DNA from: an uncultured bacterium
Lineage (GTDB): Bacteria > Acidobacteriota > HRBIN11 > JAKEFK01
Direction of reading: 5' to 3'
Assembly: GCA_963777505.1 (NCBI GenBank)
Contig: CAVZQN010000001.1
Coordinates: 96,001-160,000, forward strand
Length of the DNA: 64,000 nucleotides
Part shown: positions 8,469 through 64,000 of the stretch, piece by piece
Numbering within the stretch: position 1 is the stretch's first letter
Layout of the letters: each line of letters starts with the position of its first letter
The notes under the pieces: model-generated
Told to the model about the DNA's origin: nothing
The model's database searches: none
What the model saw: the letters and a program-made list of their open reading frames with translations, nothing else
Translations under genes and position numbers: made by a program

Positions 8469-9209
8469 ATGAGTCAGGAAAATTTGAGTCGACGCAGTTT
8501 TCTGCAGATGGGTGGCATCGCTGGAACCATATTATTTGTAGGAGGATCGATGGACGCAACTGAAACTCAAATTCCAGCAGTCGAAGCGGTAGATCATTTA
8601 CTACTTGCAATCAATGATCTGGATCATGGAATTGAATGGGCAGAAAAATCTTTGGGAGTGAAAGCGATCATAGGAGGGAGTCATCCAGGAGGCGGTACCA
8701 GAAATGCTCTTCTTTCATTGGGTGGCAAACGATATCTTGAAATCATTGCTCCTGATCCTGCACAAAAAACATATACATTTCCAATTGATGTTCGAACGAT
8801 CACACAACCACAATTGGTGATGTGGGCTGCAGGCGCTGCCAATATTCAATCTCAGACTGAGAAAGCCAAAAAAGCGGGCGTTCAGATGATGGGACCCTTT
8901 GATGGCTCACGCGCACGGCCAGATGGAAAAATTTTGAAATGGAAAACATCATTTGTTCAACATTACTTTCGCAGTGGCAATGTTGATCCGATTCCATTCT
9001 TCATTGAATGGGCAAAAGATTCAGTTCATCCATCACAAGATTCACCGCAACGATGCACCTTAACATCGTTTGAAATTGAGCATCCACAAGCGGACAAAGT
9101 TCGCGAAGCGTTGAAGGGTCTCGGATTAGATGTAATAGTCAATCAATCGGATGCTCCAAAACTCATTGCAACAATCAAAACCCCGAACGGGGAGGTAAAG
9201 CTTTCCTAG
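8469..9209 (+). CDS. VOC/glyoxalase-like family protein with Tat signal
   Basis: SRRSFLQ twin-arginine motif; DHLL...GGSHPGGGTRNALL...YLEIIAPDP...PFFIEW. Confidence 0.85.
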   Translation: MSQENLSRRSFLQMGGIAGTILFVGGSMDATETQIPAVEAVDHLLLAINDLDHGIEWAEKSLGVKAIIGGSHPGGGTRNALLSLGGKRYLEIIAPDPAQKTYTFPIDVRTITQPQLVMWAAGAANIQSQTEKAKKAGVQMMGPFDGSRARPDGKILKWKTSFVQHYFRSGNVDPIPFFIEWAKDSVHPSQDSPQRCTLTSFEIEHPQADKVREALKGLGLDVIVNQSDAPKLIATIKTPNGEVKLS

Positions 9210-44887: not shown

Positions 44888-46420
44888 ACATCGATCCGCG
44901 GTTTTAACTAGCGGTTCTGCAATCGTATTCCTTTTTTACGTTCTTGCATGCCTGGTTGTTTTTCGTAACAGTGACTTTATCGAAGGCATGAAAGGCAAAC
45001 CTGTATCCAACTCATTGGCAGAACGCGAACTTAAAACTCCGGCTGGACATACTGGAACCTACTATCGTGAAGTAGCAGAAAGATTGCAGTTTTACTCTCA
45101 CAACCCTGACCTCGTAAGCGAGTTATACAAGATGGCTCTAAGAAAAGCTCCAGCGGATTATAGAATTCCGTCTTCCTATGCCTACTACCTTGTCTCGCGA
45201 CGATGTTGCAAAGAAGATGTTGCCGCACTTTTAGAAGAAGGTTAAAGAGAAATCCGACTAGCTGGAAGATGCATCGGTTTGCAGCAGCTTATCTTCTGTC
45301 CATCGATCAATTGAAAAATGCGTTGCCCCATTTTAGAAAGGCAATTGAACTGCAACCACATTCAGCGCAGGAACTTTATGAACTCCTGGTACAGAAAGGA
45401 AGTGGATTCGAAACTCTGTCACAAATTACTCCCAATCGCGCCGATACGCAGCTACAGTTTGCTTTTTATCTTTCAGCAAAAGGAAATGCAGGAAAGCAAG
45501 AACTGGAAAATATTTTGGATGGCCTGCAGGAAATGCATTTAAAGCCGGAGCAACGAATCGCTACAGCGGAGATTGCTCTGCGAGCGGGACGGATTCAAAT
45601 CGCTGAGAAACAAGCATCCCTTGCACTCCAATCGAATGAGACCAGGGTGAACGCATTTCAACTTCTGGCGGATATAGCATGGCAACAAGAAAATTGGCGC
45701 GAGTTCGAAAAACGATCGGCTGAGTTGGAGAGATTTTATCTACAAGCCGGAGAACGTGAAAAAGCCGCCGAATATGCCTTGAATACAGTGAATCGGCTCG
45801 CACCTGTGAAAACCAAAGGAGAAACAAAAAAGAACTTATTGAAGGTATTAAACGACCATCCTCAATATGCCCCTGCCTATGAGCAGATGGCGAACTTTTC
45901 ACAAAATGAATCCGAACAAGTAACGCTTTACTATTTGAAAAAGGCAGTGCAATTGGCACCTGACCGGCTGGAATACAAAGATCGACTGGCACAGCATTAT
46001 TTGAATCAGTCACGAATCAGTGAAGCGGAAACTATTTACAATGAATTGGTCTTGTCCGCTCAAGGCACTCAGATCGGCTATCTGGGCTTATCACGATGCA
46101 GTCTGGCCAGAAATAACCCGCTGATGGCAATTGCAATCCTTGAAGATGGATTACAAAAATCAGGAAAATCAGTGGAATTGTATTTCGAGTTAGGCAAGGT
46201 TTTTAATACGATTCATGATTATCAAAGAGCCGCAGAATCATACCGCGAATTGAGTAGTCTCTCGCCTGAAAATATCGAAGCGTACATTCTGGCAGCCGAT
46301 GCTTATCGAAATCTGGGAGATTACACATCTGCGCGGGAGTTATATGGACAAGCGCTCAAACGCGATCCAGAAAATCAACGTGCGACTGAATCTTTATTAC
46401 AACTCGAGCCCGTAAATTGA
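44859..46420 (+). CDS. membrane-anchored TPR protein (frameshift ~45240)
   Basis: ORFs 44811..45245 (TM + first TPR) and 45203..46420 join at LLEEG/LKRNP. Confidence 0.8.
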
Positions 46421-46424
46421 AAGA

Positions 46425-48680
46425 CTAAGTTCGCGTAGGTGGAGGAGGCAATGCCGCTTCGGTCTGATTCTCTTCTTTTGCATAGGTGTAAGGATAATTT
46501 GAAAAGTAACTGTAGTAATAATAAGGATCACTCAGATCAATACTATTGAGCACTGCTCCCGCTAAAACGGCGTCAGACTTTACAAGTTTTCTATGCGCCA
46601 TTTGGACAACCTCGCGTGGAGTTTCACCGCCGCGGATCACCATGACTACGCAACTGCACTTCGCTGCCAGAATAAACGAATCAGCCACAGGCATCAGAGG
46701 AGGAGTGTCTAGAATTACGTGATCAAAATTCTCACGAAGACCTTCAATCAAGTGCTCCATCCTGCTGGAAGACAGTAATTCAGCTGGCCGTGGAGTTTTT
46801 CTTCCACTCGTAATTAACGATAGCCCCTGAACATTCGTTGGACGCAAAACATCTTCAAGTGGAGCATCACTTGTAAGATAACCGCTAAGACCAATATCGT
46901 TGGGCACATTCCAAATTGCATGAATGCGTGGATTACGCATATCTGCATCGATCAACGCTACCCGCTTCTGCATTTGGGCCAGTGAAATAGCCAGGTTGCA
47001 TGCAATAAAAGTCTTCCCCTCACCAGGACGGCTGCTTGTGATCAAAATATCGTGAGGCGGTGCACCAGGGAATGAAAGCAACAATGATGTGCGAACAGTT
47101 CTGAAGGCTTCGGTAACCATGGAATCCGGATCATGAAGTGACATCAAATCAGCAGGAGACTGACGAGAGGAACCCAAACGTTTTATAACGGGCTTTATAG
47201 ATCCGTTGTTTTCTTCCTCTTCACCAAAAACATAACGAGGAACGACTCCTAAAAAAGGAACATGGACATAGCGATCCACATCATCAGCGGTTTTGATGGT
47301 TCGATCAAAATATTCCAATAGAAATGACAAACTGACTGCAACAACAAACCCAATAAGAACTGAATACAGCAAGTTACGCTTGATATTTGGTTCAAAAATT
47401 CCAGAGGGCATTTCGGCCCGATCTACAACCCGAATTGTAGTCGCCTTCTTTTCTGTCAGCTGTGCAGAGACATCCGTTTCATTTTGTCTCTTCAGTAGAG
47501 ATTCCAGCAGTTGCTTTTTACCATCAATTTCAGATGCCAGCCGCCCGTAACTGAATTCCTTTCGGTACGTTTCCGCTGATTCTCGTTTGAAATTCTGCAT
47601 CTGATTCTTAAGAGCATTCTCATTCTGCAATGCTTCTTGATACTGAGAATGTGCAGTCGCTAAAACTTTTTTGTAAATTTCAGTGGTTTCCTGATCAAGC
47701 CTTTTTTCCAACTGATCCAGTTGTGATTTAAGTCTTACCATTTCTGGATAATCAGGTTTATAAGTTCTGGACTTTTCTGTGTACTGCTGCTCCAGCGATG
47801 CATGTTCAGTTTTTAACTGTTGAACAATATGACTCGTTGTAACATCAGGCATAGCATCCATACTTCTAAACTGCAAATCCTTATAATGAACCTCTTTGGA
47901 AATCCGTTCCTGTGTGGCAACCGACATTGCATTATTTAAATCTTCAAGTGTCTTCGAACTCATCGAACGATCCTGATCCAACTTGACTACTTCTTTTTCC
48001 AGGCTGTAGTTCTGTAGGCTTTTTTCCTTTTCCGCAATTTCTCCTTGTATAGTCTTTACCTGTTCTGACAGTAACTCTTCAGCCTTCTGCGTATACTCAT
48101 ATTGGGAAGCGAGCGAATACTCGACATATTCTTCGGCCCATGCATTTGCCAGTGTCATCGAAAGTTTTGCGTCTGGTGTGGTAAAAATAATTTCACAAAG
48201 GTTTGTACCTTTGACAGGAGCAATTTCAACCATTCCGAGCAGCTGGCCGGTGAGATGTTTGATCTCTTCTTCCCGCTTTTCTCCTACGAGGGTCGTCTTA
48301 GCATTTGCTTTTTTGGCAGGAGGTGCGAGATCAATTGAAGTCAGATGAAGCCTATCAATGACTCTTCTTGCCAGGCTTTTACTTTTTAATAATTTGTACT
48401 GAGTATTGAAAAAGGATTCGTATTGCTGCCAGTTATAGGCTTCAGAAATGACGTCCGGTACAAAGGCGTAACCAGATCTATCGATATATAAAGAAGCAGT
48501 ACTTCTGTAAAGGGGAGTTTGCCGAAAACTGTAGATCGTTACTCCCGTAACGACGAGAGCGAGGACAATGAAAATCATCCATCGCCGTTTTACGAGAACA
48601 AGTAGATATTCCCGTAGATTAAGCTCCTGATCTTCAAACTCATTTTGCCGATCAGGAGGCGCGAGTCCCCTGTCCTCCAT
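46425..48680 (-). CDS. wzc: polysaccharide copolymerase / BY-kinase (Wzc/GumC)
   Basis: Two TMs with coiled coil, EAFRTVRT, GEGKT, DADMRNP, DTPP, C-terminal Tyr cluster PYYYYSYFSNYPYTY. Confidence 0.93.
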   Translation of the reverse strand: MEDRGLAPPDRQNEFEDQELNLREYLLVLVKRRWMIFIVLALVVTGVTIYSFRQTPLYRSTASLYIDRSGYAFVPDVISEAYNWQQYESFFNTQYKLLKSKSLARRVIDRLHLTSIDLAPPAKKANAKTTLVGEKREEEIKHLTGQLLGMVEIAPVKGTNLCEIIFTTPDAKLSMTLANAWAEEYVEYSLASQYEYTQKAEELLSEQVKTIQGEIAEKEKSLQNYSLEKEVVKLDQDRSMSSKTLEDLNNAMSVATQERISKEVHYKDLQFRSMDAMPDVTTSHIVQQLKTEHASLEQQYTEKSRTYKPDYPEMVRLKSQLDQLEKRLDQETTEIYKKVLATAHSQYQEALQNENALKNQMQNFKRESAETYRKEFSYGRLASEIDGKKQLLESLLKRQNETDVSAQLTEKKATTIRVVDRAEMPSGIFEPNIKRNLLYSVLIGFVVAVSLSFLLEYFDRTIKTADDVDRYVHVPFLGVVPRYVFGEEEENNGSIKPVIKRLGSSRQSPADLMSLHDPDSMVTEAFRTVRTSLLLSFPGAPPHDILITSSRPGEGKTFIACNLAISLAQMQKRVALIDADMRNPRIHAIWNVPNDIGLSGYLTSDAPLEDVLRPTNVQGLSLITSGRKTPRPAELLSSSRMEHLIEGLRENFDHVILDTPPLMPVADSFILAAKCSCVVMVIRGGETPREVVQMAHRKLVKSDAVLAGAVLNSIDLSDPYYYYSYFSNYPYTYAKEENQTEAALPPPPTRT

Positions 48681-49425: not shown

Positions 49426-52400
49426 TTGTTGGCGTTTGTTTTGTCAATTGTTCCCTTAGCTTCTGCAGATGGGATCATCAGGAAAGGATCATTCGCCAAA
49501 TCTACAGCAACCGGCAACCAGGTCATTGCTCATGGACTTGGAGTCACTCCGAAAGCGATCATTTTTTGGACCACAGGACGGAACAACGAATCATTTGGTA
49601 CCAGCTTTCACTATTCATTCGGCGCTACCGATGGAACAAATAGCCGCTGCTCTTCCGCTGCTAGCCTGGATAATGCGGGAACTACGAATGGGAGCCGTCG
49701 TATTTCCACGACTCCTATTACAATTGTGGAATGGGGAGAAACCGTCATTGCTGAAGCATCATTTGTTTCATGGAATGCCACGAATGTTACGTTGAACTGG
49801 ACCACCAATAACAATCAAGCTTACGTCATCCATTTTTCGGCGATCGGAGGATCCGACGTTTCAGCCAGTGTTGTTGGTTGGACGATGCCAACAGATCCTG
49901 GAAATTTTTCAGTAACAGGTGTTGGATTCCGGCCGAGTTTAGTAATCCATTCACATGTTGGAAGCGGATACACAGGCGCTGTTGGCTCAAGCGCAACAAA
50001 TGCCGCAATCGCAACTGGGGTCATGGATTCTCAGGGAGACATATGGTCAAGCGAAATCCTTATTGTGGATAATGTTGGAACCAGTGATACTCAGCGAAAT
50101 CAAAGTACAGCTGCTTGCTTTACTGCAATTAATAACGGACTTGGTGTCACGAAGCAGGCAACTTTGGCCTCAATGGATGCGAATGGATTTACGATGAACT
50201 TCAGTGTGGCCAACGATAATGCAGCCAGAGCGTTTTCGCTTGCCTTGAGGGGTCTGAACTCGCAGACAGGTGCTTTTAATAAATCGACAGCTGCAGCGCC
50301 AGCATCGCAATCGATCACAGGTGTCGGATTTACTCCCACCTTCGTTATGTTTTCCAGTTTTATGGATACGGCACAGGGTTCACCAGTTGCTGAAGGACGC
50401 TATGGAATTGGCGGATCGGATGGCACCTCAGAAGGAAGTTCGACATTTCAGGATACGAACGGGGTGGGATACTACCAGCATTGATTCAATCGACAAGACA
50501 AGCAAAGTCTTCATGAAGGTAAACAACAATACGCCTTCAATTAATGCAGAAGCAGACTTTACATCTTTCAATGTGAATGGTTTTACACTGAACTGGACTA
50601 CAAATGATAATGTTGCTACGCAAATTCTTTATTTAGTTCTTGCTCCACTGGCTCCGACAAAGGTCAGCCTCAAATCTTTTCAAGCATTTCAAAAAGGTTC
50701 TCAGGTTCAACTTCGTTGGCGTACAGGATATGAAGTTGATAATTTAGGCTTTTCAATTTATCGCGAAATCAATGGACATCAGACAAAGCTGAATCCTTCT
50801 ATCATTGCCGGAACTGCAATGACTACCGGCGCATCCAAACCCGTTCAAGCTGGATGGTCTTATTCCTGGAAAGATTTGTTGCCAGCCAATACTTCAAACG
50901 TGAAGTACTGGTTGGAGGATATGGATCTAAATGGTGAACTGACGCGGTATGGTCCGATTTTTCCAGAATCAGTTGAGTCGCTTCCAGGTTCTCAGAATGT
51001 CCCGCTGTTAAACCAGATCGCGAATACGAATCAGCCGGCTTTGAAGAAATCGATCCCTGGACTTAAATCAGGCTCCTCAAAGAGTCTCAAAAAACAGCAG
51101 CAGCTCGCGGCAAGCAATGCAATCAAAATATCAGTGAAAGAGAATGGATGGTACCGCATTTCGCAGCCACAACTCATCTCTGCAGGTCTTGATCCTGGAA
51201 TCGATCCACGTAATTTTCAACTTTATCTAAATGGAAAACAACACGCGATTCTTGTTACGGGTCAAACTGATGGAAGTTTCGATCCGCAAGACACTGTGGA
51301 ATTTTACGGCACAGGTCTCGATACTGCCTATACAGATGAACAGATTTACTGGTTGCTTCCAGCATCCAACAAAGGAAAACGGATTAAGATTTCATCTGGC
51401 TCAGGAACGCATCCACCCGGTGAGACAAGTTTCCCACTAACAGTGGAACGTAAAGATCGAACGATTTATTTTGCAGCACTGACAAATGGCGATACTGAAA
51501 ATTTCTTCGGAGCATTAGTCAATACAACTGCGGTCGATCAAACATTGCAGCTTCCCAATCTAGACGTTTCCGCAACTTCTGATGCACTTCTGGAAGTCTC
51601 GCTTCAAGGCGTTACTGAGTTGCCGGAATCAGAACCCGATCATACAGTTGCTGTCTCGATCAATAACAATGCCCTTAGCATCCAATCGTGTTTGACGGTC
51701 AAGAGCTTATGAAGCAACAGATTCCAATTCCTCACTCATGGCTGGTTGAAGGACAGAATACTGTAACTTTAATGGCGCAGAGCGCTCAAGATGTGTCTCT
51801 TGTTGAATCGATACGCATCACTTACTCGCACACATATGAAGCCGATGACGACTTTTTGATTTTCACAACACCAGGTAATCATGAAGTCCGAATTGCTGGA
51901 TTCAGCTGGACCGCAAATCCGCCTTTTCGACATTACCAAACCGAACGCGGTGCGCGAAATCTCAGGCACAGTCGTTTCTGAAGGTTCAACATTCACAATC
52001 GTTTCATCATTAAAGAAAGGTGGAGAGCACACATTATTAGCTCTTTCCGAAAACAAAATTGCATCTGCATCCGGACTCAAAATGAATTTGCCATCAACGT
52101 GGCATGATAACGGAAACAACGCTGATGCCTTACATCTGACTCACAGCGACTTTATTGCAGCAGTCACTTCACTTCAGCAATTCAGACAATCTCAAGGAAC
52201 TTCGGTTGTCCTTATAGATGTAGAAGATATCTATGACGAGTTCAGTTACGGTATTTCCGATCCGTTGGCCATAAAAAGCTTTTTGAATACGGCAAGTACA
52301 AAATGGTCTACGCCGCCGCATACTGTTTTGTTTGCAGGAGATGCTAGTTTCGATCCCAGGAATTATTTAGGACTTGGCGATTTCGATTTTGTTCCTACCG

Positions 52401-53155
52401 GCACAGCTGCCACAAGTACAGGCGAGACTGCATCGGACGACTGGTTTGTAGATTTCGATAATGATTCACGCCCCGAAATGGCGATCGGAAGAATCCCGAG
52501 CCGTTCTTTGCAGGAAGCATCATCGATGATCAACAAAATTATCCAGTATGAGCAAACGCCGGCTGGAGGTTCGTGGAGTGATGAAGTTTTGATGGTTGCT
52601 GACAACAATGACCTCGTAGATTTTGAAAGCGCCTCCACTGAGTTGGAATCTACGATTCCTGAAAATCTTTCGATTACCAATATCTTCCTGGGACAATCCG
52701 ATCCGTCAACAGCACGCAGTCAAATTTTAAACGGAATCGAAAATGGAAAGCTTCTCGTTCATTACCTTGGCCATGGCTCAGTGGAAGTTTGGGCTGAGGA
52801 AGATCTGTTGACATCTACGGATGCAGAGGCATTTTCAAATGGCTTACGATTGCCTTTCGTTGTAGCACTCAATTGTTTGAATGGTTATTTTCACGATGTA
52901 TTCACAAACAGTTTGGCTGAAGCTTTTTTACGTAACGCAAACGGCGGAGCTGTTGCTGTTTGGGCTTCCTCTGGCTTTACCGAAACAAACCAACAGACTA
53001 CCCTGGGCCGGACAATGCTGCAGTCGCTTTTCAACGAAAATGAATCTTTAACTCTGGGTGAAACGATCTACCGCGCAAAACAAAATCCATCTGATAGCGA
53101 TGTTCGCCGCACATGGATTTTATTCGGCGATCCTCTCACACGTATTTCGCCTTAG
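49426..53155 (+). CDS. secreted C25-family (gingipain/PorU-like) cysteine peptidase, copy 1 (3 frameshifts)
   Basis: Four ORF pieces; VEDIYDEF, GDAS.D, SDDWF, IGRIP, catalytic YLGHGS and NCLNG, LFGDP. Confidence 0.85.
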
Positions 53156-53297: not shown

Positions 53298-56200
53298 TTG
53301 ATTCGCAATTTCCTTTTGTTGGCGGCTGTTGTGCTCCCCTTCGCTGCCGAAGCTGGAATCATCAAAAAGGGATCATTCATCAAATCGACATCAAATGGCG
53401 CGCAAGTCGTCTCGCATGGACTTGGAGAAACTCCGAAAGCGATTATTTTTTGGACTACAGGACGAAATAACGAATCATTTGGCGACGACTTTCACTACTC
53501 ATTTGGCGTTACCGATGGAACAACCAGCCGCTGCTCATCTGCTGCCAGTCAAGATAATGAGTTAAGAACGAATGCGAGCCGTCGAATAGCTATTGCCGCC
53601 ATCACAATTGCTGAATGGGACGAGCAACTTATTGCGGAGGCACTATTCGTATCCTGGAATACAACTACTTTTACTCTGACGTGGACCACGAACAATAACC
53701 AGCCATACATCATTCATTTTGTCGCAATCGGAGGTCCAGAGGTATCAGCCAAGGTCGTTGGTTGGAATATGCCAACAGATCCTGGAAATTTTTCAGTTAC
53801 AGCGGTTGGATTTCAGCCGAGTGTGGTAATCCATTCTCATGTCGGCAGCGGATACATTAGTGGTCCAGGAACGGTCTCAGCAAATGCGGTAATCGGAACA
53901 GCGGTCATGGACAGCCAAGGGGCTGTTTGGTCAAGCGAAATCCCGGTTTTAGATAATGGCCGGGAACTCGGTTTCGGCGCAATCAAAGTACAGCTGCTTG
54001 TTTCACTTCCATGACGATAACTTTAACGTTGGGATTGTAAAGGAAGCGACATTTACTTCGATGAATGCCGATGGTTTTACGATGAACTTCAGTATAGCCA
54101 ACGATAGTCCAGGCAGAGCGTTTTCGCTTGCTTTGAAAGGGGTGAACTCACATACAGGTAGTTTTAACAAAACGACATCTACCCTTCCGACATCCGACAG
54201 TTACTGGCATTGGATTTACCCCTACATTCGTTCTGTGCTCTTTTCCAGTTTTATGGATACGGCACAAGCTACGGTTGCTTTGCACGCACGGTACGGAATT
54301 GGAGGATCGGATGGAACGACAGAAGGAAGTTCTTCATTTCAGGATACGGCTTCTTGTCAACAACAAGTGTAAATTCAATCGATAAAACAAGCAAAGTCTT
54401 TGTGAAGGACGACAATAGTATTCCTTCATTGATGCCGAAGCCGATCTGACGTCGTTGAACTACGAATGGATTCACACTCAATTGGACTACAAATGATAAT
54501 GTACCTACAGAGATTCTTTATCTGGTTCTTGCTCCACTGGCTCCCACAAAAGTCAGCCTCAAATCTTTTCAAGCATTTCAAAAAGGTTCTCAGGTTCAAC
54601 TTCGTTGGCGTACAGGATATGAAGTTGATAATTTAGGCTTTTCAATTTATCGCGAAATCAATGGACATCAGACAAAGTTGAATCCTTCCATCATTGCCGG
54701 AACTGCAATGACTACCGGCGCATCCAAACCCGTTCAAGCTGGATGGTCTTATTCCTGGAAAGATTTGTTGCCAGCCAATACTTCAAACGTGAAGTACTGG
54801 TTGGAAGATATGGATCTAAATGGTGAACTGACGCGATATGGTCCGATTTTTCCAGAATCGGTTGAGTCGCTTCCAGGTTCTCAGAATGTCCCGCTGTTAA
54901 ACCAGATCGCGAATACGAATCAGCCGGCTTTCAAGAAATCGATCCCTGGACTTAAATCAGGCTCCTCAAAGAGTCTCAAAAAACAGCAGCAGCTCGCGGC
55001 AAGCAATGCAATCAAAATATCAGTGAAAGAGGATGGATGGTACCGCATTTCGCAGCCACAACTCATCTCTGCAGGTCTTGATCCTGGAATCGATCCACGT
55101 AATTTTCAACTTTATCTAAATGGAAAACAACACGCGATTCTTGTTACGGGTCAAACTGATGGAAGTTTCGATCCGCAAGACACTGTGGAATTTTACGGCA
55201 CAGGTCTCGATACTGCCTATACAGATGAACAGATTTATTGGCTGCTTCCAGCATCCAACAAAGGAAAACGGATTAAGATTTCATCTGGTTCAGGAACGCA
55301 TCCACCCGGTGAGACAAGTTTCCCACTAACAGTGGAACGTAAAGATCGAACGATTTATTTTGCAGCACTGACAAATGGCGATACCGAAAATTTCTTCGGA
55401 GCATTAGTCAATACAACTGCGGTCGATCAAACATTGCAGCTTCCCAATCTGGACGTTTCCGCAACTTCTGATGCACTTCTGGAAGTCTCGCTTCAAGGCG
55501 TTACTCGAGTTGCCGGAATCAGAACCCGATCATACAGTTGCTGTCTCGATCAATAACAATGCTCTTGCTCCAATCGTGTTTGACGGTCAAGAGCTGATGA
55601 AGCAACAGATTCCAATTCCTCACTCATGGCTGGTTGAAGGACAGAATACTGTAACTTTAATGGCGCAGAGCGCTCAAGATGTGTCTCTTGTTGAATCGAT
55701 ACGCATCACTTACTTGCACACTTATGAAGCCGATGACGACTTTTTGATTTTCACAACACCAGGCAATCGTGAAATCAGAATTGCGGGATTCAGCGGACCG
55801 CAAATCCGCCTTCTCGACATTACCAAACCGAACGCGGTGCGCGAAATCTCAGGCACAGTAGTTTCTGAAGGTTCAACATTCACAATCGTTTCATCATTAA
55901 AGAAAGGTGGAGAACACACATTATTAGCTCTCTCCGAAAACAAAATTGCATCTGTATCCGGACTCAAAATGAATTTGCCTTCATCGTGGCATGACAATGA
56001 AAATAACGGCTGATGCCTTACATCTGACTCATAGCGACTTCATTGGAGCAGTCACTCCACTGCAGCAATTCAGACAATCTCAAGGAACTTCGGTTGTCCT
56101 TATAGATGTAGAAGATATCTATGACGAGTTCAGTTACGGTATTTCCGATCCGTTGGCCATAAAAAGCTTTTTGAATACGGCAATTACAAAATGGTCTACG

Positions 56201-57044
56201 CCGCCGCATACTGTTTTGTTTGCGGGAGATGCTAGTTTCGATCCCAGGAATTATTTAGGACTTGGCGATTTCGATTTTGTTCCTACCGGCACAGCTGCCA
56301 CAAGTACAGGCGAGACTGCATCGGACGACTGGTTTGTAGATTTCGACAATGATTCACGCCCCGAAATGGCAATCGGAAGAATCCCGAGCCGTTCTTTGCA
56401 GGAAGCATCATCGATGATCAACAAAATTATCCAGTATGAGCAAACGCCGGCTGGAGGTTCGTGGAGTGATGAAGTCTTGATGGTTGCTGACAACAATGAC
56501 CTCGTAGATTTTGAAAGTGCATCCACTGAGTTGGAATCTACGATTCCTGAAAATCTATCGATTACCAATATCTTCCTGGGACAATCCGATCCGTCAACAG
56601 CACGCAGTCAAATTTTAAACGGAATCGAAAATGGAAAGCTTCTCGTTCATTACCTTGGCCATGGCTCAGTGGAAGTTTGGGCTGAGGAAGATTTGTTGAC
56701 ATCCTACGGATGCAGAAGCTTTTTCAAATGGCTTACGATTGCCTTTCGTTGTAGCACTCAATTGTTTGAATGGTTATTTTCACGATGTATTCACAAACAG
56801 TTTGGCCGAAGCTTTTTTACGTAACGCAAACGGCGGAGCTGTTGCTGTTTGGGCTTCCTCTGGTTTTACCGAAACAAACCACCAGACTACCCTGGGCCGG
56901 ACAATGCTGCAGTCGCTTTTCAACGAAAATGAATCTTTGACTCTGGGTGAAACGATCTACCGCGCAAAACAAAATCCATCTGATAGCGATGTTCGCCGCA
57001 CATGGATTTTATTCGGCGATCCTCTAACACGTATTTCGCCTTAG
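53298..57044 (+). CDS. secreted C25-family cysteine peptidase, copy 2 (at least 6 frameshifts; gene or pseudogene)
   Basis: Seven ORF pieces collinear with copy 1; catalytic His and Cys motifs retained. Confidence 0.8.
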
Positions 57045-57122
57045 TGCACTTTAGTCTCAGCTTTAAACGCAATATCATATATACTACTGCTGTGCTTTTC
57101 TTAAGAAGGGAGATAGTTTTTT

Positions 57123-57416
57123 TTGACGTGTTACACCAGGGATGAAAACGTTGTCGACCGGTCTATAGCCGGCGAAACAATCCTCGTACCCATTAAAGAC
57201 CGCATCGGAAATCTCGGATCTATTTACACTTTAAATGAAGTGGGGTCCTTAATCTGGGAAATGATCGATGGTCACACACCACTTCACAAAATTGTTGAAT
57301 CCGTAGTCACCACATACCAGGTCAGTGTTGATGAAGCACAACAGGATACTTCTGTTTTCTTGAGTATGCTTGAGAACGCAGGCCTGATTCACGTCACACA
57401 AGCTAAGGAGAAATGA
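57123..57416 (+). CDS. PqqD-family protein (RiPP recognition element)
   Basis: RSIAGETILVP...IYTLNEVGSLIWEMIDG...F L..L...GLI; 97 aa. Confidence 0.93.
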   Translation: MTCYTRDENVVDRSIAGETILVPIKDRIGNLGSIYTLNEVGSLIWEMIDGHTPLHKIVESVVTTYQVSVDEAQQDTSVFLSMLENAGLIHVTQAKEK

Positions 57417-58709
57417 CTTTGCAACAAGAACGTTATGGTGACTTCAGTCTTGATTTACACCAACGGGTTGTAGCGCACAGAATTCCGATTACCGGAACGA
57501 TCGAAGTCAGCAGACGCTGTCCCCTCGCTTGCGCGCACTGCTATAACAATCTTCCAATGGGCGACCGAGCTGCCCAGCTTGGCGAACTAACCTTTGATGA
57601 GTATTGCAGAATTCTGGATGAGATCTCACAGGCAGGCTGTTTCTGGTTGCTTTTCACTGGTGGGGAAATTTTTGCAAGAAGAGAGTTCTTAGATATCTAT
57701 ACATACGCCAAACGAAAGGGCTTTCTTATCACTCTTTTCACCAATGGCACTCTAATTACTCCAAAAATTGCAGACTATCTCACTGAATGGCCGCCGTTTT
57801 CTATTGAGATTACGCTTTACGGCCGAACTCGAGAAACCTATGAAAAGCTGACCCAGGTTCCTGGCTCTTACGATAAATGCATGCGTGGAATTCAACTGCT
57901 CAAGGAAAGAGGTTTGCCATTAAAACTAAAAACGGTCGGCGTTAGCATTAACAAACACGAAATCGGTGATATGAAGCATTTTGTTGAAGAAGAGCTCGGG
58001 CTAGAATTCAAGTTTGATGCAATGATTAATCCGCGTATCGATTGTTCTCAAAGCCCACTCAACGTTCGATTAAAACCGTATGAAGTTGTAGAACTTGACT
58101 TGCATGATTCTGACAGAATGTCGGAATGGCAAAAATTCGGTCAACGATTTAATGTGCCCGTTCACAAAGAAGAACACAGTGAGGAGTTATACCATTGCGG
58201 CGGCGGTATCAATTCCTTTGCAATCGATCCATATGGAATGCTCAGCATTTGTGTCTTATCGCAAGTCGATCAATATGATCTACGTAAAGGAAGTTTTAAA
58301 GAAGGTTGGGAAGGATTCTTATTTCAAGTACGTCGTGGAAAAAAGATCACCATACTCAACAAGTGCGTCAAATGCGAAATCAAATCCATGTGTGGAATGT
58401 GTCCTGCGAATGGCGAACTTGAAAACAAGGATCCGGAAAAACCTGTAGATTTCCTGTGTCACGTTGCCACATTTGAGAGCTCATACGTTCGATTTTCCAA
58501 TTAAGCCGCACGGCGACTGTGAATATTGTCCAGGTGGAAAAGGCTACTCGGATCTAATGGGCTCCATAGATGAATTAAAGAAAAATCCAGTTGATAGAAA
58601 AATGAAATTGGATCAGCCAAACTTGAACATTTTGGATCAAAATCCATCAACAGGTTGTTCAACAGGAGGATGTTCCTCCTGTGGATTAGCGTCCGTGCAT
58701 CATCCTTAG
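57413..58709 (+). CDS. radical SAM/SPASM peptide maturase (frameshift ~58468)
   Basis: CPLACAHC, FTGGE, FTNG, SPASM CGGG...DPYG...C and CxxCxxxxxCxxC; continues into ORF 58464..58709 as HVAHLRAH. Confidence 0.92.
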
Positions 58710-58727
58710 AAGTGTTTGGGGGAAAAT

Positions 58728-58898
58728 ATGTCAGAGAAAACTGCTGAAGAGAAAAAACCATATGTTAAGCCGGAGATTAAAAAAGTAGAACTAAGGCCCG
58801 AAGAGGCTGTGCTCGGTAATTGTAAAACCGGAGCCTCAGCAGGTCCTGGGTCATCAACCTGTGATATACCGTCAGCCTGCAGCGCTATTGGTTCGTAA
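58728..58898 (+). CDS. putative RiPP precursor peptide (56 aa)
   Basis: MSEKTAEEKKPYVKPEIKKVELRPEEAVL-GNCKTGASAGPGSSTCDIPSACSAIGS; GGGGGA RBS; immediately after the rSAM gene. Confidence 0.85.
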   Translation: MSEKTAEEKKPYVKPEIKKVELRPEEAVLGNCKTGASAGPGSSTCDIPSACSAIGS

Positions 58899-58966
58899 TG
58901 TATGCAAGGGTGCCTCTTAGGAAAGCAATTTCCTATGAAAAAAGATATTTCATACGTTAAGAATCA

Positions 58967-59524
58967 ATGACATCGGCCAAACGATTAAATCTGGGGAGTG
59001 GAATGCAGCGACAGATCGTGGATGCTGTTAACCTGGATATTGTCCCGAACAGCCGGGCCGATGTGATCCACGATTTGAATGAATACCCTTGGCCGTTCGA
59101 GGATAACCGGTTCGAGGAAGTCTATTGCTTCGATATTCTCGAACACCTGAATGATATTGTGCTTTCCATGCAGGAAATCCATCGTATCTCTTCCCATGGC
59201 GGCAAAATTGTATTGACAACTCCGCACTTCTCTTCGCGTAATGCCTACACGGATCCAACTCATAAACACTTCTTCGGCATTCATTCTTTTGATTATTTCC
59301 TGGATAACGGCCATTCTGAATATTCGAAAATGAATTTTTATTCGTCCGCGCGTTTTCAAAAAACCAGGCTACAAATCTATTTCGAGCACAGTTTATTCAA
59401 CAGTCTTATCGAGCGAGTTGTAAAAATCTATCCCGATTTCTGGGAAAAGAGATACTGCTGGATCTTTCCGGCGTGGTACATGGAACTTGAGTTGCAGACG
59501 GTTAAATCAATTGACCCCTCTTAG
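58967..59524 (+). CDS. class I SAM-dependent methyltransferase
   Basis: LNLGSG, NLD, HDLNEYPWPF, ILEHL, DPTH. Confidence 0.85.
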   Translation: MTSAKRLNLGSGMQRQIVDAVNLDIVPNSRADVIHDLNEYPWPFEDNRFEEVYCFDILEHLNDIVLSMQEIHRISSHGGKIVLTTPHFSSRNAYTDPTHKHFFGIHSFDYFLDNGHSEYSKMNFYSSARFQKTRLQIYFEHSLFNSLIERVVKIYPDFWEKRYCWIFPAWYMELELQTVKSIDPS

Positions 59525-59536
59525 TCTTAAATCAAT

Positions 59537-60512
59537 ATGGATGAATCGAGTAAGCATGCAGCGCTGTTGGTTGGTAATGTGATGCAAGAACACAAAAATC
59601 CGAATCAAGAATGTCATTTTTCGATTGCAGATATTTGTGTGCGCGTCGTAGTCGTCAGATCCGAAGCTCATACAGGGAGCGATACAGGCGCGGCACGATT
59701 TTATTGTGAATGAAAAGACTCCTGATTCCATCGTTTTTGCAGACGTTAAAGACTCGTTAACAGATATATCAGGCGAACCGCTTTTTGATTCCGGAGCTCT
59801 TTGGAAGCTTTATTTTCAAGAGGATCAATACCATTTCAGTTTCATATCACCGCTACTCGGTTCGCAACCTTACAAGCTTGCTTCCTTTAACCGGGATTTC
59901 ACGTGTGGTCATATATCAATGCAACGAAGGACGGACCGCTTGGATCAAAATTCAGACCCACTGGAATATCCGTTGGATGAATTGCTAATTTTGCATTTGT
60001 TGTCTCAAGGATTGGGAGTTGAAGTCCATGCGTGTGGATTGATTGATTCATTCGGAAATGGAGTTCTTTTCGTAGGCCAATCTGGTGCAGGAAAAACAAC
60101 GATGGCGGGGTTGATGCAAAAGCAGCCGCAGGTCAAAATTCTCAGTGATGACCGGATCATTCTTCGAAAAAACAATGGAAAGATCTGGATGCATGGAACT
60201 CCGTGGCATGGCGAGTCAAAATATGCAGCACCAGAAGAAGCTGAATTGAAGAAGATCTTCTTTTTGAAGCAGAATCCGAAAAACGAAATTCTGCCGTTAA
60301 AAAAGTCCGATGCAGTGGCTCGTCTCTTTGCATGCAGCTTTCCGCTTTTTTACAATACCTCCGCGGTGGACTTTATGCTTTCATTCTATGAAGAAACTGT
60401 GAAGGAAGTTCCATCTTTCGAACTGCGGTTCGTGCACAATGATGAAATTATTGAATTCATGAATCCATCAAGAAGTGCCATCGAGTATGTCGAAACTGTT
60501 TTTAAATATTAG
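59537..60512 (+). CDS. HPr-kinase-related P-loop kinase (probable frameshift ~59650)
   Basis: VHACG, GQSGAGKTT, ILSDD, GTPWHG; upstream piece 59537..59713 (FSIADICVRV) lies in another frame. Confidence 0.8.
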
Positions 60513-60909
60513 CGCTGATCTGCTGAAATCAGGGTACGGTATAGAATTCCATGCAAATGGAAAAAGTATGTATCCTACGATAAGAGATGGGGAGATGATT
60601 ACAGTAGAACCGATTGCGGCACCGGAAATAAAACCCGGTGATATTATTCTCTACCGAAATCAAACTGGAGTTGTGGCCCACCGCGTCGTTTACCTTGAAC
60701 AATCAAGTCATGGCCATCTGCTTCTGCGCGGAGATGCTTCGAATACATTCGATGCACCGATAATGCCGTATCAAATCCTTGGCAAAGTCATTTCCACAAA
60801 ACGTTCCGGCAGAAAAATCGCCCTCAATAAGAGAAGGCCGAACCTCGTGCATTTCCTGCGTGTACGTCTGAGACAGATGATTCAATCTGTAGTTGTGTTA
60901 TTTTTATGA
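60487..60909 (+). CDS. S24/S26-family peptidase
   Basis: GKSMYPTI (catalytic Ser), VAHRV (His), RGD; no N-terminal TM. Confidence 0.88.
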   Translation: MSKLFLNISADLLKSGYGIEFHANGKSMYPTIRDGEMITVEPIAAPEIKPGDIILYRNQTGVVAHRVVYLEQSSHGHLLLRGDASNTFDAPIMPYQILGKVISTKRSGRKIALNKRRPNLVHFLRVRLRQMIQSVVVLFL

Positions 60910-61778
60910 AATTTTTAGCGGCCGCAATATTACTCATTTCAGTCATAGTTTTTGCTGGCGAAGAAACTGAAAATACTGAGCCAAAAGCAGAACCTTCAGA
61001 AACTACATCCAATTCAACTCCTTCGGAAATTGATATTCACATTGGATCAGAAGATCTGCTAGAAATCACAGTTTTTGAACTTCCGCAGTTCAATGTCACA
61101 TCACGCGTATCGGGTGACGGTACAGTAACGATGCCATTGGTTGGAAGTGTTGAAGTTGGAGGGCTAACAAAAAAGGAAGCGGAGAAAAAAGTTGCAGCTG
61201 CTTTAGAAACGAAATATGTAAACAACGCAAGCGTATCGATCAATATTAAAGAATATAAGAGCAAACAGGTTTCAATTCTGGGTGCAGTCAAGAATCCGGG
61301 AGCTTATTACATCCTGAGTAATAGAACACTGTTACAGTTGCTTTCCGATGCCGGCGGATTAGCTCCACAGGCCGGCAAAATCTGTTTTGTTTTCCGCTCT
61401 GGAGCTCCAAAAATTGAAATTGATCTTGATAAATTGATGAACAGCGGTAACGAGGAGTTCAATATTCAAGTAAGGCCTGGAGATGTTATTAATGTCCCGC
61501 TAGAAACTAAAGTCATCGTATATGTTTTGGGAGCAGTCCGTTCACCTGGTGCAATCGAAATGACAACAACGTTACCGGTAACTCTTCTCGCAGCAATTGC
61601 AAGAGCGGGTGGCCTCACAGACGAGGCAAGCAAATCCAATATCCAGATACGGCGCAAGGATGATCAGGGAGCAAACTCAGTGATTAAAGTGAATTTGAAA
61701 GACATTTTGAAAGGCAAAACCGCTGACATTCCACTTTATCCTGGAGATACGATTAACATTTCTGAAAGTTTCTTCTAA
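60906..61778 (+). CDS. polysaccharide biosynthesis/export protein (Wza/Poly_export + SLBB)
   Basis: IGSEDLLEITVF, DGTVTMPLVG, LGAVKNPG, AGGL, PGD repeats. Confidence 0.9.
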   Translation: MKFLAAAILLISVIVFAGEETENTEPKAEPSETTSNSTPSEIDIHIGSEDLLEITVFELPQFNVTSRVSGDGTVTMPLVGSVEVGGLTKKEAEKKVAAALETKYVNNASVSINIKEYKSKQVSILGAVKNPGAYYILSNRTLLQLLSDAGGLAPQAGKICFVFRSGAPKIEIDLDKLMNSGNEEFNIQVRPGDVINVPLETKVIVYVLGAVRSPGAIEMTTTLPVTLLAAIARAGGLTDEASKSNIQIRRKDDQGANSVIKVNLKDILKGKTADIPLYPGDTINISESFF

Positions 61779-61797
61779 CTTTTTACGTAATAACGGA

Positions 61798-62421
61798 ATG
61801 CTTAAGCGATATTTCGATGTATTCCTTTCAGGAACAGGAATTCTACTTTCTTCACCTCTTTGGATTCTGATTGCAATCTTTATCTATTTAGAAGACCGTG
61901 GAAAAGTATTTTTTACTCAAAATCGCGTGGGACTGGGTGGTGTTCTTTTTACTGCATATAAATTCCGTTCGATGAAAACTGGTACAAATCAGGTTTCTTC
62001 TGAACTACAAGCCAGTGAAAATGATCCTCGCGTAACGCGAGTTGGCAAAATTCTAAGAGCCACAGCAATGGATGAACTGCCACAACTGATTAACATCCTG
62101 AAAGGAGATATGAGTTTTGTTGGACCGCGAGCTATTCTGCCCACGGAAATTGAGATTCATCAAAAAGGAAAAGACGAAAGAAATTTGGAGGAACTTTTCC
62201 AGAAGCGTTGCAGCGTAACACCAGGCCTTACAGGAGTTGCTCAGATTTTCTTACCTCGCGATGTTTCAAGAGAGAAAAAATTTCGTTATGATCTTGTCTA
62301 CATTCAAAAACAAAGTTTTTTGTTTGATCTAAAATTGATTTTCCTATCTTTTTGGATAACACTGAGAGGCAAATGGGAAAGTAGAGAAAACAAATTGGGA
62401 CAAGCTGATAGAAGTTTCTAG
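61798..62421 (+). CDS. priming sugar transferase (Bac_transf / monotopic phosphoglycosyl transferase)
   Basis: KRYFD, YKFRSM, DPRVT, DELPQL.N...[16 protein letters not shown]. Confidence 0.93.
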
Positions 62422-62462
62422 ATTCAAACTCCGTGTACTTCGTGACTCCGTGGTGAATTTAT

Positions 62463-63626
62463 ATGTATGATGTTGCCGTTATAGGCGCAGGGCCGTCTGG
62501 TTCGATGTTATCCCGTCTGCTGGCAGAGAAAGGACATTCGGTCGCGCTGTTAGAAGAACATGAACAACCCGGCCATCCGGTGAATTGTAGCGGCATCATT
62601 GGGCTGGAAGCATTCCAGCGTTATGACTTACCTCTAACGCCTATTATCCGGGAGATTGATTCATTTCAATTTCATTCACCGGGTGGAGCTATGCTTCAGT
62701 ACAGCCATCCGCAACCTCTTGCTTTAGCAGTGAATCGCGCAAAGTTTGATGAGGGAATGGCGGCACAAGCGGTTACTGCCGGTGCTCAGTTAATGACTTC
62801 ATCACGCGTAAATGAAATTCGGATTGAAAATGATGGAGTTTATCTCAACATCAATCGAAGTGACGTCAGTCTTAAAAGCAAACTACTGGTCATCGCCACA
62901 GGTGCAGGCTCCAAACTTATCAAACAAGTCGGGCTTGGTTCATCTCAGCAATACGTCTTCGGCGCTCAAACCGAATGTGAGACGATTGATCTGAAAGACG
63001 TAGAGATTCATCTCGGCAAGGATGTTACACCTTTTAACTTCGCCTGGATCATTCCGCTTCAAAAGGGCCGTGCAAAGGTTGGAATGATCTGTGAAAAGAA
63101 TGCGACTGAGTCGTTGAGACGATTTATAGAAAGCCTGGCACTCGCCGGAAAAGTTGTTCCACAAAGCACACCCATTCAGAACAGCTTGCTCCCATTAAAT
63201 ACAATCCGGCGTAGCTACACGGATCGCACTATTGTTATTGGTGAAGCGGCTGGCCAACTCAAGACAATCACTTGCGGCGGAATCTACTACGGATTACTTG
63301 CGGCAGAAATAGGTGCAAATGTTCTTGCTGAAGCCTTGGAGCAAAATCATTTCAGCGCTAAAGCTTTGTCGCTTTATGAGCAGCAATGGAAAAAGTTACT
63401 CGGCAAGGAATTAGAAATCGGCTTACGTCTTCGATCTGCGTTCAGACATTTTTCGGATTCCAAGATCGATTCACTTTTTGAAATCGCCAGCAAAGATGGC
63501 CTGATGAAACTCATTCGTGAAAAAGCAGATTTTGACTGGCATTATGATCTTATATCTTCCATCTTTCGCCATTCCCTGACTCGCGCAATTTTCGAGCCCA
63601 TTACTTACAGTCGATTGTTGTTTTAA
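62463..63626 (+). CDS. geranylgeranyl reductase-family FAD oxidoreductase
   Basis: GAGPSG, CSG, R..FD, FAWIIP, GEAAG...CGGIY. Confidence 0.88.
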   Translation: MYDVAVIGAGPSGSMLSRLLAEKGHSVALLEEHEQPGHPVNCSGIIGLEAFQRYDLPLTPIIREIDSFQFHSPGGAMLQYSHPQPLALAVNRAKFDEGMAAQAVTAGAQLMTSSRVNEIRIENDGVYLNINRSDVSLKSKLLVIATGAGSKLIKQVGLGSSQQYVFGAQTECETIDLKDVEIHLGKDVTPFNFAWIIPLQKGRAKVGMICEKNATESLRRFIESLALAGKVVPQSTPIQNSLLPLNTIRRSYTDRTIVIGEAAGQLKTITCGGIYYGLLAAEIGANVLAEALEQNHFSAKALSLYEQQWKKLLGKELEIGLRLRSAFRHFSDSKIDSLFEIASKDGLMKLIREKADFDWHYDLISSIFRHSLTRAIFEPITYSRLLF

Positions 63627-63635
63627 TAAGAGTTT

Positions 63636-63731
63636 GTAGTAAGGCACGCAGGCTCATTCGCGAAGCGGATGAGGCAGTGCCGTATGATCTATGAACGGCA
63701 CGGCCTCGCATTCGCTCGAGTGCCTTACTAC
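63636..63731. repeat. GTAG-bounded REP/BIME-like palindrome
   Basis: gtagtaaggcac ... gtgccttactac perfect 12-bp IR with internal gtgccgt/acggcac. Confidence 0.75.
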
Positions 63732-63743
63732 TAACCTGATAAA

Positions 63744-64000
63744 ATGACAAGTGTGAACTCGTTACTAAAGTCCGCTCTTCTAGGTGAATCTGTTTCCTGG
63801 AACGATTCTTCCAACACCAATGACCATCAGCGCTTTCTAGACTTCACACTGCAGAACGGGATCCAGCCGCTGCTTTATTATTTTTTGCGCCAATCAGGAT
63901 CTCTGGAAAAATGGCCTTCAACGATACGCACTTCTATCGAAAATGAGGCAAAAAGACAGATCGCAATTGACGTCCTGAGGCAGGCCAATCTCCAGGAGGT
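63744..64000 (+). CDS. nucleotidyltransferase-family protein (NTP_transf_5-like), N-terminal part
   Basis: Manual translation MTSVNSLLKSALLGE...NGIQPLLYYFL...WPSTIR...QANLQE resembles the helical N-terminus of this family; catalytic part lies outside the window. Confidence 0.6.
   Translation, partial: MTSVNSLLKSALLGESVSWNDSSNTNDHQRFLDFTLQNGIQPLLYYFLRQSGSLEKWPSTIRTSIENEAKRQIAIDVLRQANLQE

Follow-up and report, generated by a model that had tools for sequence, protein, structure and literature searches.

What does a short open reading frame (ORF) that couples the leader of a lasso peptide to a core of another kind encode, and why does it stand among enzymes of peptide modification? The ORF in question lies in a 64,000-nucleotide (nt) stretch of DNA from an uncultured member of the Acidobacteriota (positions 96,001 to 160,000 of contig CAVZQN010000001.1, hereafter the window), on the plus strand at 58728–58898, with its ATG at 58728 and its TAA at 58896–58898. 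The 56 amino acid (aa) translation consists of KKPYVKPEIKKVEL, RPEEAVL and GNCKTGASAGPGSSTCDIPSACSAIGS, with KKPYVKPEI in the leader, a C-x12-C-x5-C pattern in the core and GS at the end, and a Shine-Dalgarno-like GGGGGA run lies 5 nt 5' of the start codon. An earlier description made from the letters of the window alone (the sequence-only reading) had proposed this ORF, with the same YxxP leader, cysteine spacing and GS end, as the precursor of a new class of peptide modified by a radical S-adenosylmethionine (rSAM) enzyme, and its coordinates and translation agree with ours. We conclude, at a probability of roughly 0.7, that the ORF is the precursor of an uncharacterised ribosomal peptide from an rSAM-containing relative of the pathways for linear polyphosphorylated peptides (LPP) and phosphorylated lasso peptides.

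The first line of support for this reading is the conservation of the peptide itself. The protein database contains 37 homologues of 51–84 aa, and every one that carries a name from its source is called a "hypothetical protein". Their alignment has 14 invariant columns (Y12, P15, L22, P24, E26, A27, V28, L29, G30, C32, K33, G39, P40, and C51), with C45 and S56 conserved in at least 90%, and the family can be written as YxxPx(I/L/V)-x4-LRPEEAVLG-x-CK-...GP...C...C-x4-S(end). On the plus strand of the window, the YxxP motif is encoded at 58761–58772, the invariant LRPEEAVLG at 58791–58817, Cys32-Lys33 at 58821–58826, and the C-terminal Ser56 at 58893–58895. When one genome per species was scanned for the LRPEEAVLG pattern, 547 matches were found, 515 of which were confirmed by tblastn. 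Within a sample of the host's own phylum, the pattern occurred in 21 of 301 genomes and 17 of 185 genera, once in each genome, and the window's own genome likewise holds a single copy of the peptide. All locus statistics given below refer to the best 80 of the 515 confirmed loci, many of which are short or truncated contigs and 50 of which are full-length, and counts out of 81 peptides add the window's copy to these 80. The 80 loci come mainly from metagenome-assembled genomes (MAGs) of Acidobacteriota, with others from Myxococcota, from MAGs labelled as delta-proteobacteria, from Entotheonella, and from a few further sources.

The peptides are alike in layout as well as in motif. The xCK that follows AVLG is present in 81/81, exactly three cysteines are found in 79/81, GP in 78/81, and the distance from the Tyr to LRPEEAVLG is exactly 10 residues in at least 80/81. 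The tail past AVLG is 26 aa long in 58 of the 81 peptides, and the exact spacing C-x12-C-x5-C-x5-end is kept in 57. Across 56 loci, the motif LRPEEAVLGxCK uses all synonymous codons (e.g., six for Leu, six for Arg, and four each for Pro, Ala, Val, and Gly), which indicates that selection acts on the protein and not on the DNA; taken together, the homologues, the conserved loci and the codon usage mean that the ORF is a translated gene under strong purifying selection. The peptide belongs to a large, widely conserved and unstudied family. The sequence-only reading had named in advance two observations that would count against it, a lack of conservation of the ORF and a variable terminal serine, and neither was made: the ORF has the relatives just described, and the peptide ends in Ser in 78 of the 80 loci, with Thr in its place in one (L067; loci are numbered with an L throughout). 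No Pfam family matched the peptide, and the only NCBIfam match was a sub-threshold one to StsA (E 0.009, 15.9 bits against a cutoff of 42). A scan for promoters and terminators around the peptide gene returned fewer sites than were found in shuffled sequences.

The second line of support is the company that the peptide keeps. When the proteins of the window were compared with the 80 loci by tblastn, a conserved gene order of PqqD, rSAM, peptide, kinase, and S26 peptidase emerged, with fixed offsets. The rSAM enzyme was found in 72 of the 80 loci, the HprK-like kinase in 72, PqqD in 66, and S26 in 62, with a C25 (PorU/gingipain-like) protein in 44; among the 50 full-length loci, the corresponding numbers are 47, 47, 45, 42, and 36. 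These neighbour calls were made by tblastn and Pfam; clustering of ORFs was blurred by spurious antisense ORFs, which arise in high-GC loci, and by single linkage through S26-C25 proteins. The sequence-only reading had named a PqqD protein, an rSAM enzyme, a kinase-like protein and an S26 peptidase as neighbours of the ORF, and all four were recovered by Pfam and NCBIfam. A full-text literature search returned no paper on a cassette that joins this toolkit of a RiPP recognition element (RRE; RiPP, a peptide made on the ribosome and then post-translationally modified), kinase and S26 peptidase with a radical SAM enzyme.

In locus L028 (7890–9107), the frame of the peptide runs on into the kinase-like gene and the end of the rSAM ORF looks out-of-frame, so this is probably a frameshifted assembly. 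A second, off-cassette copy of the peptide is present in the Myxococcales MAG that also contains locus L018 (L030:7692–7859), where it adjoins a tetratricopeptide repeat (TPR) protein and a protein dependent on flavin adenine dinucleotide (FAD).

The gene that opens the cassette in the window (57123–57416, plus strand, 97 aa) encodes a discrete PqqD-family RRE of the lasso/LPP type (PF05402, E 7.5e-17). Its best NCBIfam match is lasso_PqqD_Bac (NF033536), at 45 bits and thus under the cutoff of 80. A profile built from 47 orthologues is nearest to the lasso RRE TbiB1 (1.1e-13), followed by the PqqD-family chaperone entries 9x90 and 9x8z (2026-era), while the PqqD of pyrroloquinoline quinone (PQQ) synthesis scores just 2e-5 against it. 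The lasso-type character of the leader noted from the sequence holds across the family as YxxPx(I/L/V), and the adjacent PqqD protein is nearest to RREs of the lasso and LPP kind. Modelling of the complex of PqqD with the peptide, in line with the PqqD-leader model suggested in the sequence-only reading, gave a score of 0.47 against 0.01 for the best control, with at least 98% contact agreement between runs and a predicted local distance difference test (pLDDT) value of at least 52 for the partner. Of 157 solved complexes, 116 also pass the mark that this prediction passed, as do 2 of 215 mismatched pairs, and a pass at a score of 0.60 or less was seen in only 18 of the 157 solved complexes, plus both of the passing mismatches. 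Since similar complexes have already been solved, the pass may be memory, reflecting likeness rather than binding.

Directly upstream of the peptide gene is the radical SAM/SPASM enzyme, which in the window is split. Its N-terminal 363 aa are encoded at 57413–58504 (plus strand; PF04055, E 4.6e-18), the frame is broken near 58464–58470, and the C-terminal ~70 aa (HLRA...CEYC...CSSC, with a CxxC...CxxC pattern) continue in another frame of the same strand at 58464–58709. Orthologues are single ORFs of ~420 aa, and alignment to a locus from the same genus (L004) shows one extra base in the window near 58464–58470; the break may reflect pseudogenization, a mistake in the assembly or a gene in two parts. 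In three soil DNA runs, ~5% of the sampled words were recovered; contigs from their short reads cover only 58704–59224, 59518–59669, and 59854–60004 of the region 57100–60950, and the frameshift site at ~58466 lies outside them. At a depth of ~2, these contigs have one base fewer than the window at 58944 (a run of six A) and at 59651, and the missing bases hint at indel errors in the assembly. Within the family, the CxxxCxxC motif and seven SPASM cysteines are present in 51 of 51 full-length orthologues, and the C-terminal CxxC...CxxC cysteines in 51, 51, 47, and 45 of the 51. The solved chains nearest to the enzyme are PqqE (E 3e-10) and SkfB (E 9e-9). It reaches no NCBIfam equivalog, scoring 115 bits against AhbD (cutoff 500), 82 against MftC (265), 74 against ScmE (400), 73 against StsB (625), 68 against PqqE (381), 57 against AlbA (850), 56.1 against ScmF (400), and 52 against PapB (340).

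The third and fourth enzymes follow the peptide. At 59706–60512 (plus strand), a 268 aa P-loop protein has weak matches to ScmC (7.5e-6), HprK_rel_B and Hpr_kinase_C, and its family keeps GxSGxGK(S/T), SDDR, and GTPWHG invariant. A search of the PDB with the sequence profile of this family was swamped by generic P-loop matches, and a fold search was used in its place: the AlphaFold2 model (pLDDT 91) retrieved HPr kinase/phosphatase (1knx_A, E 2.5e-6) as the top Foldseek match, followed by phosphoenolpyruvate (PEP) carboxykinases. On the strength of this predicted fold, the protein is presumed to be an HprK-like peptide kinase. The presumed leader peptidase is encoded at 60475–60909 (plus strand, 144 aa) and is an archaeal-type S26 protein resembling SipW and LppS (TIGR02228, 52.2 bits against a cutoff of 51.85; PF00717). 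Its Ser31, His69, and Asp87 are kept by all 59 of the sequences and Asp93 by 54 of the 59, and no transmembrane segment was predicted in the window's copy, which together suggest a soluble, catalytically competent enzyme of the archaeal/endoplasmic reticulum type.

A fifth partner was not part of the sequence-only reading. The window carries two tandem copies of a C25 gene on the plus strand, the first at 49426–53155 in three ORFs (PF01364, E 7e-89; 234 bits against NF033707, PorU, with a cutoff of 420) and the second at 53298–57044 in about six ORFs, ending 79 bp before the PqqD gene. The duplicated unit measures 3.89 kb, and its copies are 74–98% identical and both fragmented; in the same-genus locus L004, the C25 gene is a single intact ORF of 1270 aa. 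The C25 domains counted above (44/80 loci and 36/50 full loci) lie within 8 kb of the peptide and match PF01364 at E values of ~1e-80 to 1e-89; their best NCBIfam match is PorU, the sortase of type IX secretion, at 231–252 bits and so under the cutoff of 420. The domain forms the C-terminus of proteins of 760–2350 aa, the largest of which start with a signal peptide and carry DUF11 repeats (found in 3 of 8 intact C25 orthologues scanned). In many loci of the Terriglobales type, C25 proteins of 1280–2350 aa begin with an S26 domain, which is fused in frame ahead of a helix resembling a signal anchor. Giant fusions of 2100–2350 aa, with S26 ORFs that start near position 9100, were found in L042, L044, L045, L046, L048, L050, L054, L066, L074, L076, and L083, and both of the ~2100 aa fusions that were scanned (L044 and L076) have DUF11 repeats. 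As the S26-fused giant ORF runs off the end of the locus in at least four cases (L042, L045, L046, and L083), the C25 counts are minima. In three further loci, the peptide lies directly 5' of a giant C25 gene (L052:8001–8171, L064:8001–8156, and L071:8001–8171), and the same three genomes have PqqD, rSAM, kinase, and S26 genes elsewhere (L090, L088, and L091) with no peptide between the rSAM and kinase genes. A peptide that is parted from its enzymes and still stands beside C25 is tied to C25 as tightly as to the enzymes.

The S26 domain is also fused to a nucleotidyltransferase of the NTP_transf_5 family (L008:9093–10688 and L027:9495–11135), of which 17 of the 80 loci have a homologue within 8 kb. 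As far as gene sequences can tell, the S26-C25 and S26-NTP_transf_5 fusions are Rosetta-stone links among the three proteins. In the window, the NTP_transf_5 gene starts at 63744 on the plus strand and runs past the end at 64000 (PF14907, E 7.6e-40); in L003, it encodes 377 aa. The whole cassette is situated inside an exopolysaccharide (EPS) locus (43223–48680 and 60906–64000 of the window, and positions 1–17000 of L003), which contains an O-antigen-ligase-like gene, a PrsT-like TPR gene, a Wzc-like tyrosine autokinase, an EpsE/Wza-like exporter, and a priming sugar transferase, along with a flavoprotein of the geranylgeranyl-reductase family, many glycosyltransferases, a flippase, and a polymerase. 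Between the peptide and the kinase gene, the window has a class I SAM methyltransferase of 185 aa (58967–59524, plus strand; PF08241 and PF13489). A homologue lies within 8 kb in 4 of 80 loci and in none of the 80 between the peptide and the kinase, and the enzyme could be an extra tailoring step particular to the lineage. Like the C25 link and the rSAM frameshift, this placement, which is peculiar to the window genome, goes beyond the sequence-only reading. Elsewhere in the window, four large ORFs of 712–1280 aa (24840–27716, 28839–32681, 34969–37107, and 37104–39248) have no NCBIfam match at E 1e-5.

From these parts, a pathway can be proposed. The YxxPx(I/L/V) motif of the leader would be bound by the discrete PqqD-family RRE of the lasso/LPP type, which would present the peptide to the rSAM/SPASM enzyme for modification of the C-terminal region of 26 residues. 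The most economical guess at this chemistry is the formation of thioether-type cross-links from the three conserved cysteines of C-x12-C-x5-C. The protein with the HPr-kinase fold would then phosphorylate a serine; the terminal Ser is the only conserved hydroxyl, making it a site of the paeninodin type and not of the LPP type, and the NTP_transf_5 enzyme may decorate or extend the phosphate. The S26 peptidase, acting in the cytoplasm through Ser, His and Asp and aided by the RRE, would remove the leader within EEAVLG. Measured from the conserved Tyr, such a cut would fall 16–19 residues away, compared with 16 in LPP and 17 in lasso peptides (the latter being the Y(-17) rule quoted in the sequence-only reading). 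Cleavage by classical signal peptidases follows a -3/-1 rule. The Tyr ruler would place the cut at A27/V28; the -3/-1 rule, with V and G respectively in those two positions, would place it at G30/N31. Lastly, the product may act in concert with the giant PorU-like C25 protein of the cell surface encoded next to the cassette and, in the window genome, with the surrounding EPS locus. The S26 cut at EEAVLG and the action of the kinase on the terminal Ser, both suggested in the sequence-only reading, would fit by analogy with LppS and LppK and with the lasso kinases, as described in the parts of PMC13381572 and PMC8498205 drawn on here, and are unproven.

Several points weigh against this proposal. 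For any member of the family, we infer the chemistry of the pathway from genes alone, and because the rSAM enzyme falls outside the curated families, thioether formation is a guess from cysteine content. The predicted PqqD-peptide complex outscored its control but supports the pairing weakly. The frameshift in the rSAM gene means that the cassette may be inactive in the window genome. Of the 50 full-length loci, a scan for ABC (ATP-binding cassette) signature motifs, as distinct from a profile search, picked out just one with such motifs within 8 kb, and an ABC-ATPase-like ORF in that single locus argues against a dedicated exporter. In LPP, the kinase acts on core Ser3, according to the portions of PMC13381572 used here, so the terminal Ser may be kept for another reason. 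Additionally, an invariant Cys32-Lys33 pair just past the putative cut and a motif kept invariant from phylum to phylum are unusual at a leader/core junction, and this segment may itself be modified or functional.

In the alternative that fares best, the modified peptide would not be a free secreted product and would serve the PorU-like C25 protein as substrate or partner, trimmed by the C25 domain outside the cell or attached by it, in the manner of a sortase, to a surface glycan or to the giant protein. The presence of C25 in 36 of 50 full loci, with at least four more in which an S26-fused giant ORF runs off, speaks for it, as do the in-frame S26-C25 fusions, the peptides found beside C25 and away from the enzymes in three genomes, the lack of a conserved exporter and the position of the window's cassette inside an EPS locus. 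However, adjacency and fusion establish a functional link and not its nature, the scores stay below the PorU cutoff, no acceptor or sorting motif was identified, and 14 of the 50 full loci have no C25 within 8 kb by tblastn, though in 4 of the 14 a giant ORF extends past the end of the locus. We consider this alternative unlikely, though worth keeping in view. Much the same can be said of its most specific form, a tentative picture in which a PorU-like C25 transpeptidase at the cell surface handles a peptide that is cross-linked and bears a phosphate, perhaps a glycosylated one, at its C-terminus. If that were true, a giant adhesin or the EPS layer would have a ribosomal peptide covalently built into it or would be processed with its help, and Acidobacteriota and other soil phyla would possess a peptide-surface conjugation system of a new kind, as opposed to an antibiotic-type RiPP.

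Less probable still is that the peptide is the precursor of a small intracellular molecule resembling a cofactor, made in the manner of PQQ or mycofactocin and trimmed by peptidases. Such a molecule would suit the pairing of a discrete PqqD with an rSAM/SPASM enzyme, the missing exporter, the fact that each of the 21 matching genomes of the phylum sample, like the window genome, has just one match, and the fixed residues C32, K33, G39, P40, C45, C51, and S56. Against this, the residues between the fixed positions vary freely, unlike those of PqqA and MftA, the enzyme scores far from PqqE (68 against 381) and MftC (82 against 265), the RRE is nearer to lasso B1 proteins than to PqqD, and the loci showed no redox enzyme as a conserved partner. 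The precursor of an rSAM-containing relative of LPP and phosphorylated lasso pathways remains our preferred identity for the ORF.

A lasso precursor with an atypical core is scarcely credible, and the sequence-only reading had already set it aside. The leader does have the lasso YxxPx(L/I/V) form, with Y12 and P15 invariant, the RRE is of the lasso type, and HPr-kinase and NTP_transf_5 genes are known lasso tailoring genes in the sections of PMC8498205 consulted. Nevertheless, sequence features already contradict it. Lasso precursors require Thr at leader position -2, as stated in the abstract of PMC10368454 and in the sequence-only reading, and no Thr stands there at any plausible junction in the invariant EEAVLG. 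None of the 81 peptides has an Asp or Glu at core positions 7–9, and either residue occurs anywhere in the tail in just 12 of them. There is no match to PF13471, the B2-type protease, in the genome (completeness 95.86%), and the nearest homologue of the asparagine synthase (PF00733) lies at C1:176656, ~22 kb downstream in the EPS locus and outside the conserved cassette; neither a cyclase nor a B2-type protease is among the conserved neighbours of the 80 loci. As for an ORF that arose by chance or is left untranslated, for which its shortness could be cited, 515 confirmed relatives, a constant length and cassette position, and invariant residues written in all synonymous codons leave it next to no chance.

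The peptide family spans 515 species-level genomes, mostly those of uncultured soil Acidobacteriota, with others in Myxococcota, Desulfobacterota-like lineages and Entotheonella, and its cassette unites two toolkits previously regarded as distinct, namely the set of RRE, HprK-like kinase and SpI-like peptidase, published in 2026 and called Bacillota-restricted in the passages drawn on here, and the rSAM/SPASM enzymes. Working out one product would establish a new type of radical SAM chemistry, acting on a phosphorylated peptide, and could reveal the purpose of RiPP-like cassettes in capsule and EPS loci, which the LPP authors left open in the sections used here.

How the cassette compares with known systems can be seen from five of them. 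The adjacent C25 domain finds its best NCBIfam match, at a score under the cutoff, in PorU, the C25-family sortase of type IX secretion; unlike in PorU, the C25 domain here is the C-terminus of giant proteins and is at times fused to S26. SynChlorMet (SCM, TIGR04248–TIGR04251) has three protein types in common with the cassette, since ScmC is the best NCBIfam match of the kinase, the PqqD protein is ScmD-like and the rSAM enzyme is ScmE-like. The equivalog cutoffs of that system are not reached (ScmC 25.5 bits against 125, ScmD 32.5 against 100, ScmE 73.8 against 400, and ScmF 56.1 against 400), and the cassette has one rSAM enzyme where the names ScmE and ScmF indicate two; the name SynChlorMet was not found in a full-text literature search. 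The sactipeptides and ranthipeptides (StsA/StsB, PapB, and AlbA) likewise combine an rSAM/SPASM maturase and an RRE with a core that bears cysteines and is rich in small residues. In contrast to theirs, the RRE of the cassette is discrete and not fused, its rSAM enzyme has an extra CxxC...CxxC module, and a kinase and S26 peptidase are present; scores lie below the cutoffs of the curated families (StsB 73 against 625, PapB 52 against 340, AlbA 57 against 850, and StsA 15.9 against 42).

The phosphorylated and phosphoglycosylated lasso peptides (paeninodin and pseudomycoidin) are closer. In the parts of PMC8498205 that we draw on, the C-terminal Ser of the linear precursor is the residue on which HPr-kinase homologues from lasso clusters place a phosphate, and this phosphate receives a hexose from a nucleotidyltransferase, which in some cases is fused to the B2 leader protease. 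The cassette shares with these systems a YxxP/WxxP leader with a discrete B1-type RRE, an HPr-kinase homologue alongside a precursor that ends in Ser, and a nucleotidyltransferase that is sometimes fused to the protease. It differs in having an rSAM enzyme and S26 in place of the cyclase and the B2 cysteine protease, with no Thr at -2 and no Asp/Glu acceptor.

The closest comparison is with the LPP pathway of Bacillota (LppA/K/B/S/D/N; Popov et al., Nat Commun 2026, PMC13381572), for which the following is limited to the portions of the paper used here. Its precursors are 35–200 aa long and have a YxxPxVLxHQxIxFETxxS leader; LppB is a discrete RRE, LppK an HprK-like kinase, LppS an archaeal-type SpI-like leader peptidase, LppD an MsbA-like exporter, and LppN an NTP transferase. 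LppK places several phosphates on core Ser3, beside the cleavage site, and LppS, with catalytic S29/H68/D93, cuts after T-1 and requires the RRE. The clusters sit in capsule loci and are described as Bacillota-restricted, with the role of the product left open by the authors, and the main text does not contain the words radical, rSAM, SPASM, Acidobacter, C25, or gingipain. In common with LPP, the cassette has a discrete lasso-like RRE with a YxxP leader, an HprK-like kinase, an enzyme of the NTP_transf type, a polysaccharide-locus setting, and an archaeal-type S26/SpI peptidase (S31/H69/D87 or D93 here, S29/H68/D93 in LppS). The differences are as clear. In 72 of 80 loci, the gene directly upstream of the peptide encodes an rSAM/SPASM enzyme, whereas LPP are linear, with phosphorylation as the primary modification. 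The leaders, LRPEEAVLG here and VLxHQxIxFET in LPP, have only YxxPx(I/L/V) in common, and the core here is a 26 aa tail with three cysteines, compared with LPP precursors of 35–200 aa. Neither candidate cleavage site is followed by a conserved Ser at +1 to +3, in contrast to the core Ser3 phosphorylated in LPP. The MsbA-like exporter of the LPP core cluster has no regular counterpart in the cassette (1/50 by motif scan). The cassette is tied to a giant PorU-like C25 protein and occurs in Acidobacteriota, Myxococcota, and other phyla, whereas LPP are reported from Bacillota only. The rSAM gene emphasized in the sequence-only reading is in the cassette, but four enzyme types (RRE, kinase, S26 peptidase, and NTP_transf_5) match the published LPP toolkit, and so "new class" overstates the case. 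That reading was right in outline, with its details unproven, and we regard the pathway as an rSAM-bearing, C25-linked variant of the toolkit of LPP and phosphorylated lasso peptides.

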